Below, piece by piece: positions 27,577 through 43,725 of a stretch of 64,000 nt of DNA. The position numbers and the translations under genes are program-made. The notes under the pieces are model-generated. The model made no database searches. It saw only the letters and a list, made by a program, of their open reading frames with translations, and was not told the origin of the DNA. Numbering within the stretch: position 1 is the first letter of the stretch; each line of letters begins with the position of its first letter. The stretch comes from a virus (lineage: Duplodnaviria; Caudoviricetes): IMG/VR virus record IMGVR_UViG_3300021399_000106, positions 1-64,000 of that record; one strand, 5' to 3'.

Positions 27577-27991
27577 GGGCTTGTTTATGGATTCGCTGAG
27601 AGTTCAGAGAAAAGGTAAGCATACGGAGTAGACTTCGTTACCAACGTCGAGGTTTGAATAAACGCAAACTCAATTAAAAACAAAATCGCAAACTTCTTCA
27701 GAGGCTTTGCTTCTCAAAGAGTTGCAGCATTAGCTTAATTAACGAATATTAAGCAAACGAAAACTAGAATACCTATACTAGTAAGTAGTTACATTTTCAT
27801 AGGGGTAGAGGACCTTTGTATTTATTAGCAGTCGAAAGGAAATCGAAACGACCATAGAAACTAATCGAATTACATTTCTAATTTGCTTATTTACAGATGA
27901 TGTAATTTGTACGAGGATATAAATAAGATAATATGTAGAAAGCCTAATTGAAGGATTTTCATACGGGAGTTCGAGTCTCCCCAGGTCCACC
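27577..27991 (+). ncRNA. ssrA: tmRNA
   Basis: acceptor GGGCTTG/CAGGTCC-ACC with G3.U, GGATTCG 5' motif, T-arm GGGAGTTCGAGTCTCCC, tag 27664-27738 ANSIKNKIANFFRGFASQRVAALA*. Confidence 0.92.
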
Positions 27992-38125: not shown

Positions 38126-38183
38126 TATATTGTATAATATAAAGTAATTATTTCCCGGAGTGAGATTCTCCGTTGATATAGAT

Positions 38184-38259
38184 ACCGGCGTAGCTCAACT
38201 GGTAGAGTCGCGGTCTTCAAAACCGTTGGTTGTGGGTTCGAGTCCTACCGCCGGTACCA
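38184..38259 (+). tRNA. tRNA-Trp(TCA), UGA-decoding
   Basis: 76-nt cloverleaf, anticodon TCA at 38217-38219, short variable loop (not Sec), A73, CCA. Confidence 0.92.
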
Positions 38260-38328
38260 GTCAGTATAATGGTTTATGGATTCATTTCTATAAACCATTT
38301 TTATTTTATATAGGAAAGGAATTAAATT

Positions 38329-39315
38329 ATGCAAAGAATGATAAGTGGTATTAAACCAACAGGAAAAGTAACGTTAGGAAATTATATTGGTGCAATAAAA
38401 CAATTTATAAAATATCAAGATGATTATGATTTATGGGTTTTTATAGCGGATTTGCACGCATTAACACTTCCTATAAGCCAAAAGGAGTTACTCGAAAATA
38501 CGGAGAATTTAGCGGCGATTTATATAGCTGCTGGATTAGATCCTAAAAAGGTAACTTTATTTAAACAATCTAGTATTGTTGGACCTACAGAATTAAGTTG
38601 GTTACTAACTTGTAATACTGTTTTAGGTGAATTAACTAAAATGCCACAATATAAAAATTATTGTGAAAATCATAAAGGTGAAGGTGTTCCAACTGGTATG
38701 TTAATGTATCCTTCCTTAATGAGTGCCGATATATTATTATATGATGCTGATTATGTTCCAGTAGGGGAAGATCAAAAATCGCATGTTGATTTATGTAGAG
38801 ATATGGCTGAAAAGTTTAATAAAAGATATCCTGATAGTTTTAAATTACCTGAAACTATATTAGCTAAACAAGGTGCCAAAATAATGAGTTTATCAAATCC
38901 TACAAAGAAAATGAGTAAATCAGAATCTGATAAAGGAACAATTTATATTTTAGATGATATAGAAATATCTAAGAAAAAAATTATGAAAGCTTTAACTGAT
39001 AGTGAAGATAAAGTATATTATGATCCAATTAATAAACCAGGAATTTCAAATCTATTAACAATTTATAGCTGTTTAAGTGGAGAAGATATTAAAGTAATTG
39101 AAGATAGATATAAAGATGCTATTAATTATGGTATATTTAAGAAAGATTTATGTACATTATTAGAAAAGGAATTATTACCTATTCAAGAAAAAGTTAGAAA
39201 GTTAAAAGAAAGTGGAGATTTGGATTTAATATTATTTAATGGCTCATTATCTGCACAATCAGCTGCAAAAAGAAAAATTACAGAAATTTATAAAAAAGTT
39301 GGTTTATTAGATTAA
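38329..39315 (+). CDS. trpS: tryptophanyl-tRNA synthetase
   Basis: SGIKPTG.TLGNYIGA, ADLHA, YP.LMSADIL, PVGEDQ, KMSKS. Confidence 0.95.
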   Translation: MQRMISGIKPTGKVTLGNYIGAIKQFIKYQDDYDLWVFIADLHALTLPISQKELLENTENLAAIYIAAGLDPKKVTLFKQSSIVGPTELSWLLTCNTVLGELTKMPQYKNYCENHKGEGVPTGMLMYPSLMSADILLYDADYVPVGEDQKSHVDLCRDMAEKFNKRYPDSFKLPETILAKQGAKIMSLSNPTKKMSKSESDKGTIYILDDIEISKKKIMKALTDSEDKVYYDPINKPGISNLLTIYSCLSGEDIKVIEDRYKDAINYGIFKKDLCTLLEKELLPIQEKVRKLKESGDLDLILFNGSLSAQSAAKRKITEIYKKVGLLD

Positions 39316-39531
39316 AATTAATTGTATAATATATTGTTAAAAATTAATAAATATTTAGTTAGATTCAAAGAAAATTATAATTTTATAAAAAAAGTTATTT
39401 TAGGTATTGATTTTTAGAAAAAAATATTGTATAATATATATGTAAAATAAAAATAATTAATTTTAGTAAAAACAGAGAAATTTGTTGTACTAAATTAGTT
39501 AAATAAAAAATTTGTTAAGGAGAACACAGTT

Positions 39532-39699
39532 ATGAAAACATTATTAAGTCTAATAAAATTACATAATCTTAATAGTCAATATCCGTTACAATCATACTGT
39601 GATTACTCTGAACAAATTACAGACAACGCTGTATTCACAAATAAACCATTTGGGTATGAAGCGAGAGAAAATAGCACACGAGGTTTTCCTAGAAGTTAA
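39532..39699 (+). CDS. putative leader peptide upstream of tRNA array
   Basis: 55 codons, RBS AAGGAG, between promoter 39407-39435 and terminator. Confidence 0.55.
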   Translation: MKTLLSLIKLHNLNSQYPLQSYCDYSEQITDNAVFTNKPFGYEARENSTRGFPRS

Positions 39700-39725
39700 C
39701 TGAAACTAATCTTTTAAAATAATTT

Positions 39726-39757
39726 AAGGACTAGCAAAGTTAGCTAGTCCTTTTTTA
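39726..39757 (+). terminator. intrinsic terminator/attenuator before tRNA array
   Basis: AAGGACTAGC..GCTAGTCC+T6. Confidence 0.75.
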
Positions 39758-39771
39758 TTTGTTATTTATAT

Positions 39772-39847
39772 AGGTCTTTAGTTTAATAGGTAAAATGATA
39801 GTCTCCAAAACTATAAGATGTGAGTTCGAATCTTACAGGGCCTGCCA
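39772..39847 (+). tRNA. tRNA-Trp(CCA)
   Basis: cloverleaf, G73, CCA. Confidence 0.9.
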
Positions 39848-39864
39848 TAAAATTAAATATAATA

Positions 39865-39965
39865 AAGACAGTTACAGCAATTCTAAATGCTAGACAAATG
39901 GATAAGTCAATTTCCTGCTAAGAAATCATTTTGGGTTCAAATCCCAAGCAAATAAAACTGTCTTG
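39865..39965 (+). ncRNA. clamp element E1 with acceptor-truncated tRNA-Ser(GCT)-like module
   Basis: AAGACAGTT-ACAGCAA...AACTGTCTTG around D, anticodon and T arms. Confidence 0.7.
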
Positions 39966-39970
39966 TATAT

Positions 39971-40046
39971 GGGGCATTAGCTCAGCTGGGAGAGCGTCTG
40001 TTTTGCACGCAGAAGGTCACCGGTTCGATCCCGGTACGCTCCACCA
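39971..40046 (+). tRNA. tRNA-Ala(TGC)
   Basis: cloverleaf, G3.U70, CCA. Confidence 0.92.
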
Positions 40047-40203
40047 TATAGATTGTACCTGTTACTATAGAACAGTTATGATAAATATAAAGCGTTCATT
40101 TGATAAATGAAAGAAAGATAAAGTGGTGATTTATCTCCTTCCGATATACTGGTGGGATAGCTTATAAGCTAGTGTTAAGCCTAGGACAATTAACACTTAA
40201 AAT

Positions 40204-40279
<76 letters not shown>

Positions 40280-40302
40280 TAAAAATAAATATTTAAGATA
40301 TA

Positions 40303-40420
40303 AAGACTCATACTGCAATTATTCCATTCTAGGATTTTTAGCTCATTTGGTAGAGCGTCAAACTTGTAATTTGAAAGTAGCAGGTTCAAGTCCTGCAGAA
40401 TCTATGATAAACGAGTCTTG
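40303..40420 (+). ncRNA. clamp element E2 enclosing CCA-less tRNA-Thr(TGT)-like module (40332-40404)
   Basis: AAGACTC-ATACTGCAA...AAAC-GAGTCTTG. Confidence 0.7.
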
Positions 40421-40425
40421 TAAAT

Positions 40426-40502
40426 GGACATGTAGCTCAGTTGGTTAGAGCTCCCCGCTCATAACGGGGCGGTCCTAGGTTCGAGACCTAGCTTGTCCAC
40501 CA
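40426..40502 (+). tRNA. tRNA-Ile2/Met(CAT)
   Basis: cloverleaf, GGAC acceptor like Bacillota Ile2, CCA. Confidence 0.85.
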
Positions 40503-40509
40503 GTTAAAT

Positions 40510-40585
40510 CGCCCCATCGACAAGCGGCCTAAGTCATTGGACTTTCTATCCAACATCGCCGGTTCGAATCCGGCTGGGGTGACCA
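40510..40585 (+). tRNA. tRNA-Glu(TTC)
   Basis: cloverleaf, CCA. Confidence 0.88.
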
Positions 40586-40589
40586 TAAT

Positions 40590-40667
40590 CGTCGCGTAGT
40601 GGAATTGGTTAACACACTTGCCTCTCAAGCAAGAGATTTACGAGTTCAAATCTCGTCGCGTCGACCA
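40590..40667 (+). tRNA. tRNA-Glu(CTC)
   Basis: cloverleaf, CCA. Confidence 0.85.
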
Positions 40668-40672
40668 TAATT

Positions 40673-40748
40673 GTTCCCATAGGCTAATGGACTAGACCAC
40701 TAGGCTACGAACCTAGTAATGAGGGTTCGAATCCTTCTGGGAATGCCA
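40673..40748 (+). tRNA. tRNA-Arg(ACG)
   Basis: cloverleaf, CCA. Confidence 0.9.
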
Positions 40749-40759
40749 TTTAAATATAT

Positions 40760-40836
40760 TGGCTGTTAGCTCAATTGGTTAGAGCATCGGACTGTTAATC
40801 CGGGGGTTGAGAGTTCAAGTCTCTCACAGCCAGCCA
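40760..40836 (+). tRNA. tRNA-Asn(GTT)
   Basis: cloverleaf, CCA. Confidence 0.92.
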
Positions 40837-40838
40837 AT

Positions 40839-40913
40839 GCAGGTATAGTATAAAGGTTAGTATTTCAGTCTTCCAAACTGAGGATACGGTTTCGAGATCC
40901 GTTACCTGCTCCA
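40839..40913 (+). tRNA. tRNA-Gly(TCC)
   Basis: cloverleaf, U73, CCA. Confidence 0.88.
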
Positions 40914-40986
40914 TAAAATTCTAAAGAAAGAGGTAATCGCTATGGAATCTGATTATAGCTATTATTACAACTTAATAATTAAATTT

Positions 40987-41071
40987 CGTGGCGTAGTTCG
41001 TTAAAGAGGCGAGGAAGTCCGTAAAACTTTCATCTTAGATCCGCTGAGAGCATTACTCAGAGCCACGACCA
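40987..41071 (+). ncRNA. degenerate tRNA-like RNA (GTA loop)
   Basis: CGTGGC/GCCACG+ACCA, non-canonical T-loop. Confidence 0.45.
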
Positions 41072-41075
41072 ATAT

Positions 41076-41165
41076 GGGTATGAGGCTACTGTCGGTTGCG
41101 TGGCGGCAGACTGTAAATCTGTTACATTGGAAACGTCGTAGGTTCGACTCCTACCATACCCACCA
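41076..41165 (+). tRNA. tRNA-Tyr(GTA)
   Basis: cloverleaf, long variable arm, CCA. Confidence 0.85.
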
Positions 41166-41168
41166 AAT

Positions 41169-41245
41169 GGACGCTTAGCTCAGCTGGGAGTAGCGCTTGC
41201 CTTACAAGCAAGAGGTCACAGGTTCGATCCCTGTAGCGTCCACCA
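41169..41245 (+). tRNA. tRNA-Val(TAC)
   Basis: cloverleaf, CCA. Confidence 0.92.
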
Positions 41246-41330
41246 GCCGATTTTAAGACATAATTGCTTAAAGGTTGTTTGCCAGACTTTAGTAGTAACG
41301 GCATCGAATAAAAACTGGCATTTAATATTT

Positions 41331-41407
41331 CGGGATTTAGCTCAGCTTGGTAGAGCGCTTGGTTTGGGACCAAGATGTCGTAGGTTCGAATCCTATAATC
41401 CCGACCA
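41331..41407 (+). tRNA. tRNA-Pro(TGG)
   Basis: cloverleaf, CCA. Confidence 0.92.
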
Positions 41408-41448
41408 AATAAGTTGTGGGTATAATAAGACTTGAAACCCTCATAAGT

Positions 41449-41524
41449 GGCCCGTTAGTTCAGCGGTTTAGAATCTTCGGCTGTCTCCCGAGGGACACGA
41501 GTTCGAATCTCGTACGGGTCGCCA
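41449..41524 (+). tRNA. tRNA-Asp(GTC)
   Basis: cloverleaf, G73, CCA. Confidence 0.9.
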
Positions 41525-41528
41525 TAAT

Positions 41529-41621
41529 GGTCAGTTGGCAGAGTCTGGTTTATTGCACTGGTCTTGAAAACCAGCGACGGTGATGAGCCGTCCGTGGGTT
41601 CAAATCCTACACTGACCGCCA
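41529..41621 (+). tRNA. tRNA-Ser(TGA)
   Basis: cloverleaf, long variable arm, CCA. Confidence 0.92.
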
Positions 41622-41639
41622 TTAATTAAAATTATATAT

Positions 41640-41768
41640 GCTCACGTTATAGTCACATCAATTTATGGATGGTTGCAAACTGAAATAAGGAGATGAGGAT
41701 GAATCTTGGAGATGGCCACCGAGATGAACGCAATACGGTATTAGGTGCAATTCCTTTTGTGGGTACCA
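41640..41768 (+). ncRNA. oversized (129 nt) tRNA-like RNA
   Basis: GCTCACG/TGTGGGT+ACCA, T-loop AGG-TGCAATT-CCT. Confidence 0.5.
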
Positions 41769-41773
41769 TATAT

Positions 41774-41850
41774 CCAATAGTAGCTCAGTTGGTTAGAGCA
41801 CTCGGCTGATAACCGAGAGGTCGATTGTTCAAATCAATCCTATTGGACCA
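41774..41850 (+). tRNA. tRNA-Ile(GAT)
   Basis: cloverleaf, CCA. Confidence 0.9.
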
Positions 41851-41856
41851 TAATAT

Positions 41857-41943
41857 GCTCCGGTGGTGGAACTGGTATACACGTTGGACTTAAAATCCAA
41901 TGCCTTTACAGGATTGAGGGTTCAAATCCCTCTCGGAGCACCA
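41857..41943 (+). tRNA. tRNA-Leu(TAA)
   Basis: cloverleaf, long variable arm, CCA. Confidence 0.92.
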
Positions 41944-41952
41944 AATATAAAT

Positions 41953-42029
41953 GCTCGAGTTAGTTCAGTTGGTAGAACATCTGATTGTGGCTCAGAGGGT
42001 CAAGGGTTCGAGTCCCTTACTTGAGCCCA
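41953..42029 (+). tRNA. tRNA-His(GTG)
   Basis: cloverleaf with G-1:C73, CCA. Confidence 0.9.
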
Positions 42030-42121
42030 TATAAAATATTAGAAAAAGGAGAACGACGTATATGAAACGAAAATGTAGATGTCGAAAGTGTTGTAGGAAA
42101 CAATTTAATAGATTTTTATAT

Positions 42122-42197
42122 GCGCCGTTAGCTTAACTGGTAGAGCTCTGGTCTCTTAAACCTGAGGTTATAGGTTCAAATCCTATACGGCGCACCA
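42122..42197 (+). tRNA. tRNA-Lys(CTT)
   Basis: cloverleaf, imperfect anticodon stem, CCA. Confidence 0.8.
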
Positions 42198-42203
42198 ATA
42201 GAT

Positions 42204-42279
42204 GTGCCTGTAGCTCAGATGGTAGAGCACTTGACTTTTAATCAAGGGGTCACGAGTTCGAACCTCGTCGGGCACACCA
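42204..42279 (+). tRNA. tRNA-Lys(TTT)
   Basis: cloverleaf, CCA. Confidence 0.92.
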
Positions 42280-42284
42280 TGAAT

Positions 42285-42361
42285 GTGCCGTTAGCTCATT
42301 CGGATAGAGCAACCGCCTTCTAAGCGGTAGGTGATAGGTTCGAGTCCTATACGGCACGCCA
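42285..42361 (+). tRNA. tRNA-Arg(TCT)
   Basis: cloverleaf, CCA. Confidence 0.92.
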
Positions 42362-42370
42362 TTATTTAAT

Positions 42371-42444
42371 GCGTCCGTAGCCAAGTGGTAAGGCAGGAGG
42401 CCGCAACCCTCTGATCACTGGTTCAAATCCAGTCGGATGCTCCA
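42371..42444 (+). tRNA. tRNA-Cys(GCA)
   Basis: cloverleaf, U73, C33, CCA. Confidence 0.85.
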
Positions 42445-42448
42445 TTAT

Positions 42449-42525
42449 CTCCTAATAACCCAATCGGAAGAGGTAGTAAGCTCAAACCTTACAAAGTATT
42501 GGTTCAAATCCAATTTAGGAGACCA
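42449..42525 (+). tRNA. tRNA with CAA anticodon (nominal Leu), short variable loop
   Basis: CTCCTAA/TTAGGAG+ACCA; GTAAG-CTCAAAC-CTTAC. Confidence 0.75.
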
Positions 42526-42554
42526 TATATTGTATAATATTTAGATATAAAGTT

Positions 42555-42629
42555 GCCGCTTTAGTATAAAATCTATTACGATTGAATGGTAATCAATTGA
42601 AGGCGGAGAGTTACCGTCAAGCGGCACCA
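42555..42629 (+). tRNA. tRNA-Thr(GGT), degenerate D/T loops
   Basis: GCCGCTT/AAGCGGC+ACCA; ATTGA-ATGGTAA-TCAAT. Confidence 0.65.
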
Positions 42630-42635
42630 TTAAAT

Positions 42636-42711
42636 GCCACTCTAGCTCAGTAGGTAGAGCGTTGGCCTGAAGAGCCAAGCGTGGTAGGTTCGATTCCTAC
42701 GGGTGGCGCCA
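42636..42711 (+). tRNA. tRNA-Phe(GAA)
   Basis: cloverleaf, CCA. Confidence 0.9.
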
Positions 42712-42714
42712 AAT

Positions 42715-42789
42715 GCGTGAGTAGTATAATGGTTAGTATATGTCCTTGCCAAGGATAAGGTGCGGGTTCAATTCCCGTCTCGCGCTCCA
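42715..42789 (+). tRNA. tRNA-Gly(GCC)
   Basis: cloverleaf, U73, CCA. Confidence 0.88.
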
Positions 42790-42816
42790 GAGTAGATTTG
42801 AAAGGAAGTAATTATT

Positions 42817-43233
42817 ATGAGTTTATATACTAGAGTATATGAAGATTTTATTAAAGCAAGAAAAGATAAAAATGAAGTAAATAAAAATATTTTAGGTTTA
42901 TTATATAATGCTTTAAAAAACAAAGCAATTGAATTAAGAGTTGATGAATTAACTGATGCTGATTCTAGTTCTGTAATTAAGAAAGTTTCTAAACAATTAG
43001 ATGAAGAAATTGAATGCAATGTAAAGGTTAATAGAACTGAAAAAGCAAATGAATTAACTTATCAAAAGAATTTAATTCAAGACTACTTACCAAAACAATT
43101 AAGTGAAGATGAAATTAAGACTATATTAAATACTCTAGAAGATAAAGCTATTCCTTCAGTAATGAAGTATTTTAAGACTAATTATAATGGTCTAGTAGAT
43201 ATGAGCTTAGTTAGTAAGCTCGCTAGACAATAA
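42817..43233 (+). CDS. GatB/YqeY-domain protein
   Basis: ARKDK..LKN..I..LTD..VIKK..KQ..YLPKQLSEDEI..VDM pattern. Confidence 0.8.
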   Translation: MSLYTRVYEDFIKARKDKNEVNKNILGLLYNALKNKAIELRVDELTDADSSSVIKKVSKQLDEEIECNVKVNRTEKANELTYQKNLIQDYLPKQLSEDEIKTILNTLEDKAIPSVMKYFKTNYNGLVDMSLVSKLARQ

Positions 43234-43235
43234 TT

Positions 43236-43310
43236 GCCAGTTTAGCTCAGAGGAAGAGCAAACCGCTCATATCGGTTAGGTCGAGATATCGTAATTCTCA
43301 GCTGGTACCA
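43236..43310 (+). tRNA. tRNA-Met(CAT), atypical T-loop
   Basis: cloverleaf, CCA. Confidence 0.75.
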
Positions 43311-43315
43311 TATAT

Positions 43316-43400
43316 GCCGGTGTGGTGGAATTGGTAGACACCCTAGTCTTAGAAACTAGTGCTGAAAGGCGTGAGGGTTCAAGTCCCTCCACCGGTACCA
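43316..43400 (+). tRNA. tRNA-Leu(TAG)
   Basis: cloverleaf, long variable arm, CCA. Confidence 0.92.
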
Positions 43401-43555
43401 TTTGATTATTCATTTATTAATAGTAAGCGCGGTAGTATTATTAATAAATTTATAATAGTTGCCATTTAGAAAAATGGAGCGTATGACACTGATTGCAAGG
43501 TGTGTAACGACTGATGAAATGTGGAGCCGACAGTATAAAAAAACTCCAACCATAT

Positions 43556-43630
43556 AGGACCGTAGCCAAGTGGTAAGGCAAGGGACTTTGACTCCCTCAT
43601 TCGAAGGTTCGAACCCTTCCGGTCCTGCCA
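43556..43630 (+). tRNA. tRNA-Gln(TTG)
   Basis: cloverleaf, CCA. Confidence 0.92.
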
Positions 43631-43634
43631 AAAT

Positions 43635-43725
43635 GGTTGCTTACTCAAGAGGTCGAAGAGGGTGCACTGCTAACGCATTAGGAGTTTAATCGCTCGCGGG
43701 GGTTCAAATCCCTCAGCAACCGCCA
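43635..43725 (+). tRNA. tRNA-Ser(GCT)
   Basis: cloverleaf, long variable arm, CCA. Confidence 0.9.

Follow-up and report, generated by a model that had tools for sequence, protein, structure and literature searches.

A phage TrpRS with an altered G73 pocket and an A73 tRNA(UCA) in a putative code-change locus

TGA-recoded clades of gut phages were described by Borges et al. (10.1101/2021.08.26.457843), together with a 'code change module' in two Jade phages that comprises a suppressor tRNA, a tryptophanyl-tRNA synthetase (TrpRS) and release factor 1 (RF1), written in the standard code. Seki et al. 2025 (PMC12636597) tested two phage pairs, AP1 and HF2, both of which inserted Trp at UGA; their tRNAs, with discriminator G73 in AP1 and A73 in HF2, showed no activity in E. 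coli extract unless their own TrpRS was supplied, and Trp was inserted by 13/13 of the phage tRNA(UCA) tested. We analysed a locus at positions 38,184 to 39,847 of a 64,000-nucleotide stretch of phage DNA (the window), which is the first 64 kb of a 166,546-bp IMG/VR virus record (IMGVR_UViG_3300021399_000106; 27% GC, about 93% complete). The locus contains a tRNA(UCA), the TrpRS gene trpS and a tRNA-Trp(CCA), and it comes from a large phage of the gut or rumen. The underlying concept has been published before, and the locus is of the same kind, without RF1.

As in the Jade phages and HF2, the locus belongs to a large gut phage that is apparently recoded from TGA to Trp and whose likely hosts are Bacillota, and the suppressor tRNA(UCA) stands beside a phage TrpRS, both in the standard code. 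In-frame stops in late genes accompany these standard-code genes, as they do the Jade module. That module includes RF1, whereas the release-factor domains PF00472 and PF03462 had no match anywhere in the 166.5-kb record (93% complete); it is followed by a lysis cassette, whereas here a small open reading frame (ORF) and a 31-gene tRNA array follow trpS. The likeness to HF2 extends to A73 and is drawn from the tRNA and the published behaviour of the pair. AP1 also combines a phage TrpRS with a co-located, Trp-inserting UGA suppressor, but that tRNA has G73. Its residues L6, T7, I145 and V147 are I5, S6, V143 and V145 here, so the two are different enzymes, and in its G73 pairing AP1 is nearer to a sister type (loci L024 and L026) whose TrpRS has Gln and Glu at the positions discussed next.

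In the E. coli TrpRS–tRNA complex structure, Glu155 forms two hydrogen bonds with G73, on which Gln152 stacks; the two residues are termed strictly conserved in bacterial TrpRS, C35 and A36 are major determinants for the enzyme, and a G73A change cuts charging by Bacillus subtilis TrpRS about 9-fold (PMC12135181). In the phage, both G73-reading residues are replaced and the tRNA(UCA) has A73. We consider it probable that the locus serves a TGA-recoded phage as its code-change kit, with a co-adapted tRNA and TrpRS in which the suppressor is poorly charged by the host and the enzyme is permissive.

The phage TrpRS and its tRNA(UCA)

The trpS product scored 321.5 bits against the TIGR00233 equivalog model (cut-off 176.75), compared with 26.5 bits for the tyrS model, and matched PF00579 (6e-65). 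The class I signatures TLGNYIG (residues 14-20) and KMSKS (194-198) and the Trp-binding Asp134 are invariant in the clade alignment. The protein is predicted with confidence to adopt a TrpRS fold (predicted local distance difference test score 82.5), with residues 151 and 154 at the start of helix 147-166. Residues were mapped by alignment to Geobacillus TrpRS and to Salmonella TrpRS, which shares the E. coli numbering. The residue that stacks on G73, E. coli Gln152, is Ser151 in the phage enzyme, and the residue that hydrogen-bonds G73, Glu155, is Asp154; the enzyme thus lacks the G73-reading Gln and Glu of bacterial TrpRS. The anticodon-binding residues, which the preliminary description had proposed to examine in a model, were compared by alignment. 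All six are present and canonical: E. coli Thr225, Asp226, Ser227, Tyr270, Gly271 and Lys274 correspond to Thr223, Asp224, Ser225, Tyr267, Gly268 and Lys271, and these are invariant across the clade. The anticodon site therefore shows no change.

The clade comprises 121 proteins, namely the phage TrpRS and its 120 nearest relatives, which are 64-98% identical and all metagenomic; every genomic context fetched for these relatives was phage-like. At the Gln position the 121 proteins have Ser (107), Pro (10) or Ala (4) and never Gln (0), and at the Glu position they have Asp (111) or Glu (10). Both canonical residues were kept in 84/84 metagenomic and outgroup TrpRS, in 79/80 TrpRS from species-representative genomes and in 138/150 representatives clustered at 50%; the single species-genome sequence without them stems from a binned phage contig. 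The clade signature TKMPQYKN recurs in three of the 50%-clustering representatives that depart from Gln/Glu, which have Pro/Tyr, Ser/Phe and Pro/Asp at the sites in question; the deepest relatives, P0121 (Pro/Tyr) and P0126 (Ser/Phe), had no tRNAs nearby. Further clade-specific replacements fall in the connective peptide 1 (CP1) region and the catalytic loop (R104K, T106P and K111Y), at positions well conserved in other TrpRS. Lys111 of Geobacillus TrpRS contacts ATP.

Two double-length proteins, P0122 (714 aa) and P0125 (789 aa), each match TrpRS over two segments, which may make them tandem or fused TrpRS; the Glu position of P0125 is occupied by Gln. A scan of IMG/VR with a single TrpRS sequence gave no matches, and the clade alignment as query yielded 5 loci. 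The metagenome scan returned only TrpRS of ≤51% identity, mostly cellular, which served as a background set and not as relatives.

The tRNA(UCA) scored 65.8 bits with the Rfam tRNA model and the tRNA-Trp(CCA) 63.1 bits (gathering score 29). As the preliminary description had stated, it has A73 and the 5′ acceptor strand ACCGGCG; the 3′ strand is CGCCGGT, and CCA is encoded. It has the cloverleaf, the short variable loop (5 nt) and the C35 and A36 of a bacterial tRNA-Trp, and its D-arm, anticodon arm and T-arm resemble those of tRNA-Trp. In place of the bacterial G73 and C34 it has A73 and U34, and although A1-U72 is retained, pairs 2:71 and 3:70 are C-G where bacterial tRNA-Trp has G-C. Minimum-free-energy folding did not return a cloverleaf for this sequence, whereas the covariance model and ARAGORN did. 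A tRNA-Sec identity was ruled out by the short variable arm (5-nt loop) and the 7/5 stems.

All phage tRNA-Trp(CCA) genes examined have AGG...G73, including that of the window (AGGTCTT/AGGGCCT), whose G73 had been correctly noted before. In a census of IMG/VR, Trp-type tRNA(UCA) mostly have G73, and several have A73 with other first base pairs. The latter (L108, L115/L137, L117, L120 and L139) have G1-C72, U1-A72, C1-G72 or G1-U72 and come from higher-GC phages whose records encode no TrpRS. A search of IMG/VR for the tRNA end 'GGTACCA' returned only the already-known record and one chance non-tRNA match.

Compared with the canonical bacterial pair (PMC12135181), the phage pair shares the fold, the class I motifs, the Trp-binding Asp, the anticodon residues and A1-U72, and differs by Ser for Gln152 and Asp for Glu155 in the enzyme and by A73, C2-G71, C3-G70 and the UCA anticodon in the tRNA. 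Eukaryotic and archaeal pairs also use A73, but their tRNA begins with G1-C72, in their enzyme the two sites are Arg and Pro, and A73 is read through an N-terminal domain that is absent from the phage TrpRS (PMC12135181). The tRNA-Trp(UCA) of code-4 systems (Mycoplasma, Spiroplasma and mitochondria) is likewise of Trp type with a UCA anticodon and reads UGA as Trp; there, however, it is charged by the cell's only TrpRS, whereas here a second, phage-encoded enzyme is present and the host is presumed to use the standard code. The bacterial tRNA-Trp(UCA) of code 4 are not known to depart from G73.

Enzyme and tRNA across relatives

The two pocket residues and the tRNA acceptor end co-vary along the phylogeny. 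A tRNA(UCA) could be assigned to five Ser/Asp enzymes with mutual identities of 65-100%, namely those of the window and of loci L004, L141, L001 and G002. In 5/5 cases the tRNA has A1-U72, C2-G71, C3-G70 and A73 (ACC...GGU-A73) and an encoded CCA. Acceptor pairs 4-7 vary among the five, with pairing kept by compensatory changes, and the four tRNA bodies compared pairwise are only 64-82% identical. Between the window (38184-38259) and L004 (249-323) the tRNAs are 64.5% identical, whereas the flanks are 93-97% and the trpS DNA 97% identical. A divergent tRNA at exactly the same site within near-identical flanks marks a precise swap of the tRNA cassette in which the ACC...GGU-A73 end was retained.

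The Ser/Asp clade is monophyletic (support 0.987), with L024/L026 as its sister (support 0.999). In this sister lineage TrpRS keeps Gln/Glu and the tRNA(UCA) has G73. The nearest cellular lineages, Anaeroplasmatales and Erysipelotrichales, have a Gln/Glu TrpRS and a tRNA-Trp with AGGG...G73; in metagenome-assembled genomes (MAGs) of Anaeroplasmatales type the TrpRS is 56-59% identical to the phage enzyme. A first pattern search in MAG G001 found no intact tRNA.

The force of the co-variation is its agreement with the crystal structure and the conservation of the acceptor end over divergent tRNA bodies. At sequence level, the mutual adaptation of the enzyme pocket and the tRNA acceptor end is well supported.

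TGA recoding and the layout of the locus

The 166.5-kb record was better described by code 4, with an ORF coverage of 0.845 and a longest ORF of 2013 aa, compared with 0.705 and 749 aa under code 11. In-frame TGA codons number 221, compared with 348 TGG. TGA is rare across 1-60 kb and exceeds TGG in 90-100 kb and 120-166 kb; genes in the TGA-rich blocks include one for a tail fibre and several of very large size. Replication genes also require read-through, namely those for DNA ligase, a DnaC-like loader, DnaB, DNA polymerase and NrdD. In alignments with related phages, TGA stood opposite TGA 13 times and opposite Trp 8 times, with a few cases each of Phe, Cys, Leu, Ile, Val and Lys; DnaB and NrdD of standard-code organisms have Phe opposite the phage TGA. 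In alignments to PDB entries (ligase, DnaB, NrdD and DNA polymerase, with TGA written as X), TGA fell at weakly conserved sites where the opposite residues are aromatic or hydrophobic and not an invariant Trp, so that support for Trp from these sites is only modest. Taken over the genome, TGA is used as a sense codon, most likely for Trp, mainly in the structural gene blocks.

A host that natively uses code 4 was considered and rejected: the early region avoids TGA, the tRNA-Trp(CCA) of the phage is of the canonical type, and so are the pairs of the cellular lineages nearest to it.

The features of the locus are listed in Table 1. The earlier description of its layout held throughout: the tRNA(UCA) precedes trpS by 69 nt (about 70 nt had been given), a TTGTATAAT motif lies upstream of it near 38130, and it stands outside the main tRNA array (39772-43725, 31 genes), which begins 457 nt downstream of trpS. 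The trpS gene likewise proved free of in-frame TGA, with 2 TGG codons, and is open under table 11, as is trpS of all relatives fetched. The leader hairpin retains its stem arms, CGGAG and CUCCG, in L004, and the element differs elsewhere at two positions. The hairpin between the tRNA and trpS is also retained in L004; the form in L141 is weaker and no better than shuffled sequence.

Table 1. Features of the tRNA(UCA)-trpS locus, with positions in the window
Feature	Position	Strand	Remarks
TTGTATAAT promoter-like motif	38130..38138	+	Upstream of the tRNA(UCA)-trpS unit
Small 5′-leader hairpin, CGGAG-loop-CUCCG	38156..38174	+	Folding weak, z -1.35
tRNA(UCA), Trp-type body, A1-U72, C2-G71, C3-G70, A73, encoded CCA	38184..38259	+	ARAGORN, Rfam
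Terminator-like 13-bp hairpin and U-run between tRNA(UCA) and trpS	38268..38309	+	Free energy (dG) -15.5 kcal/mol, z -3.2
trpS, tryptophanyl-tRNA synthetase, 328 aa	38329..39315	+	Table 11 ORF, TAA stop
trpS residues 104-111	38638..38661
Ser151-His-Val-Asp154 codons	38779..38790	+	In place of G73-reading Gln152/Glu155 of E. coli TrpRS
Two further TTGTATAAT motifs, at 39322 and 39427	39322..39435	+	3′ of trpS
Small ORF, 55 aa, MKTLL...PFGYE	39532..39699	+	Downstream of trpS
Terminator-like hairpin, 10 pairs (5 G-C), and T-run	39726..39752	+
tRNA-Trp(CCA), canonical bacterial type, A1-U72, G2-C71, G3-C70, G73	39772..39847	+	First gene of the main array

Across the genome, TTGTATAAT occurs in 31 copies, compared with about 14 expected from base composition. 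The majority are intergenic and oriented with the genes, and 22/31 lie within the TGA-poor first 87 kb. Because the copies mostly precede genes with little or no TGA in that region, the motif is a candidate early/middle promoter class. The sites at 38130, 39322 and 39427 are among the 31, and the motif is frequently extended to ATTGTATAATAT.

The MKTLL...PFGYE ORF is conserved after trpS in the window, L004, L141 and L143 (52-56 aa); searches against families gave no match to it, and it could be a candidate member of the tRNA-trpS module. ARAGORN called 32 tRNAs and one transfer-messenger RNA (tmRNA) in the window, and every tRNA gene of the 166.5-kb record falls inside it. One 72-nt call, a 'tRNA-Ser(gct)' at 39884-39955, was not recovered by the Rfam tRNA model at its gathering score and may be tRNA-like rather than a decoder. 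The tmRNA (27577-27991) has the tag ANSIKNKIANFFRGFASQRVAALA; a near-identical tag occurs in the relative L147 (15040-15457), where the tmRNA directly adjoins an A73 tRNA(UCA). Relatives carry further translation genes, including a hibernation factor, S21, tmRNA and about 30 tRNAs. In L002, L003, L005 and L006, trpS is next to the gene for a ribosome hibernation factor (PF02482), and S21, NAD-salvage genes and a TROVE/Ro60-like gene are nearby, forming a large island of translation and RNA-handling genes.

Probable one-way privacy and alternative readings

In the reading that we favour, the host could translate genes with little or no TGA, trpS included, using the standard code. A Trp-type tRNA with a UCA anticodon would be made from the unit behind TTGTATAAT, as would, by read-through of the hairpin and U-run, the TrpRS mRNA. 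The host TrpRS is expected to read G73 with its Glu, and because A73 and C2-G71/C3-G70 depart from the bacterial Trp identity set, a canonical host enzyme should charge the tRNA poorly. With its pocket re-shaped by Ser151 and by an Asp154 that may contact A73, and its anticodon site canonical, the phage TrpRS would load Trp onto the suppressor, and the UGA codons of the TGA-rich structural genes would then be decoded as Trp. The phage TrpRS probably still accepts G73 tRNA-Trp, which would make the privacy of the pair one-way.

Several observations weigh against this reading. The co-variation represents a single evolutionary transition and so has no statistical weight as a set of repeated events. 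The change from Glu to Asp is conservative, and the equivalent E153D lowers the activity of B. subtilis TrpRS on a G73 tRNA by only about 33% (PMC12135181). E. coli tRNA-Trp(CCA) is a good substrate of HF2 TrpRS, and AP1 and HF2 TrpRS cross-charge each other's tRNA despite the differing discriminators (PMC12636597), which indicates that position 73 is not an absolute barrier. Whether the tRNA adjoins trpS varies among the loci: the two are 69 nt apart in the window and L004, about 55 nt in L141, about 950 nt in L001 and about 10 kb in G002, where the tRNA is beside the tmRNA. In L143, which has a 93%-identical TrpRS and a recoded ORF, no tRNA was found in the ~400 nt of upstream contig, and four relatives had no tRNA(UCA) in up to 10 kb of flank or in a 67-kb contig, the upstream side having run to the contig end in three of these loci. 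Other phages have an A73 tRNA(UCA) in records without TrpRS, one of which is 100% complete. Finally, the evidence at individual residues that TGA means Trp is modest in amount.

The preliminary description had proposed that the host enzyme would charge this tRNA poorly and that the phage TrpRS is specialised for it, the two forming a quasi-orthogonal pair. Poor charging by the host is consistent with A73, the flipped 2:71 and 3:70 pairs and the inactivity of the A73 tRNA of HF2 on its own. The idea of a quasi-orthogonal pair is partly borne out: it draws on the loss of both G73-reading residues, the five ACC...GGU-A73 tRNAs and the canonical state of the G73 sister, and is weakened by the variable adjacency and by the A73 phages that lack TrpRS. 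Specialisation of the enzyme is probably too strong a claim, given the mild effect of E153D and the charging of tRNA-Trp(CCA) by HF2 TrpRS. As Asp keeps the carboxylate, these published data lead us to expect that the tRNA needs the enzyme and that the enzyme is not exclusive: the suppressor probably depends on the phage TrpRS, the HF2 data suggest that this TrpRS is itself permissive, and its strict specialisation for the suppressor is unlikely.

The best-surviving alternative, which we regard as unlikely, is that TrpRS is a generic auxiliary gene that boosts Trp charging, with the host TrpRS sufficing and A73 and Ser/Asp arising by neutral drift as constraint relaxed in the phage lineage. 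It would accommodate the variable adjacency, the A73 tRNA(UCA) of phages without TrpRS and the charging of ordinary tRNA-Trp by the HF2 enzyme (PMC12636597); relatives also carry many other translation genes, aminoacyl-tRNA synthetase genes occur in many large phages, and host TrpRS has been argued to be often co-optable (Borges et al., 10.1101/2021.08.26.457843). Drift, however, leaves unexplained why two near-invariant residues are both replaced across the clade of 121. It is also at odds with the retention of ACC...GGU-A73 over tRNA bodies of such divergence and through a cassette swap, and with a sister lineage that retains both canonical states together.

Full orthogonality in both directions, in which the phage TrpRS would reject G73 tRNA-Trp as the host enzyme rejects the suppressor, seems to us improbable. 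Replacement of both G73-reading residues is in keeping with it, as are R104K, T106P and K111Y in CP1, which makes contact with the acceptor arm, and the rejection of E. coli tRNA by AP1 TrpRS shows that a phage enzyme can discriminate in this way (PMC12636597). Asp154 nevertheless retains a carboxylate and the B. subtilis E153D enzyme is mildly impaired on G73 tRNA (PMC12135181); HF2, the sole tested enzyme with an A73 partner, charges G73 tRNA-Trp well (PMC12636597), and the phage retains a G73 tRNA-Trp(CCA) of its own.

That the tRNA(UCA) carries another amino acid and trpS is unrelated to recoding is highly improbable: A73 is not the bacterial Trp discriminator and suits many synthetases, and several aligned TGA sites stand opposite Phe, Cys, Leu or Val, but the D-, anticodon and T-arms are tRNA-Trp-like, C35 and A36 are main determinants for TrpRS and the enzyme has a canonical anticodon site, TGA exchanges mostly with TGA and TGG between relatives, and every phage tRNA(UCA) in the published tests inserted Trp (PMC12636597).

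We found no mention of the Ser/Asp substitutions or of the ACC...GGU acceptor end in the available portions of either study (Borges et al.; Seki et al.). Going beyond the co-adapted, one-way private pair, we propose only tentatively that a Ser/Asp TrpRS and an A1-U72/C2-G71/C3-G70/A73 suppressor constitute a second natural identity set for a bacterial-type TrpRS, one that the host cannot charge. If so, translation of the TGA-containing late genes would be gated on accumulation of the phage TrpRS, and the acceptor end, not the anticodon, would be the insulating element. A code-switching phage in a standard-code cell must read a stop codon as an amino acid, and the locus offers a sequence-level rationale for how this may be done: a suppressor tRNA that the host is unlikely to charge, with pairs 2:71 and 3:70 flipped, and an enzyme in which the G73-reading residues known from crystallography are replaced. 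The general statement in the literature that identity elements may differ would thereby become a set of concrete point mutations, S151Q and D154E in the enzyme and A73G and swaps of 2:71/3:70 in the tRNA. The clade is spread over gut and rumen phages, with at least 120 protein clusters at 90% identity, and would offer, for genetic code expansion, a large family of natural candidate pairs that decode UGA.

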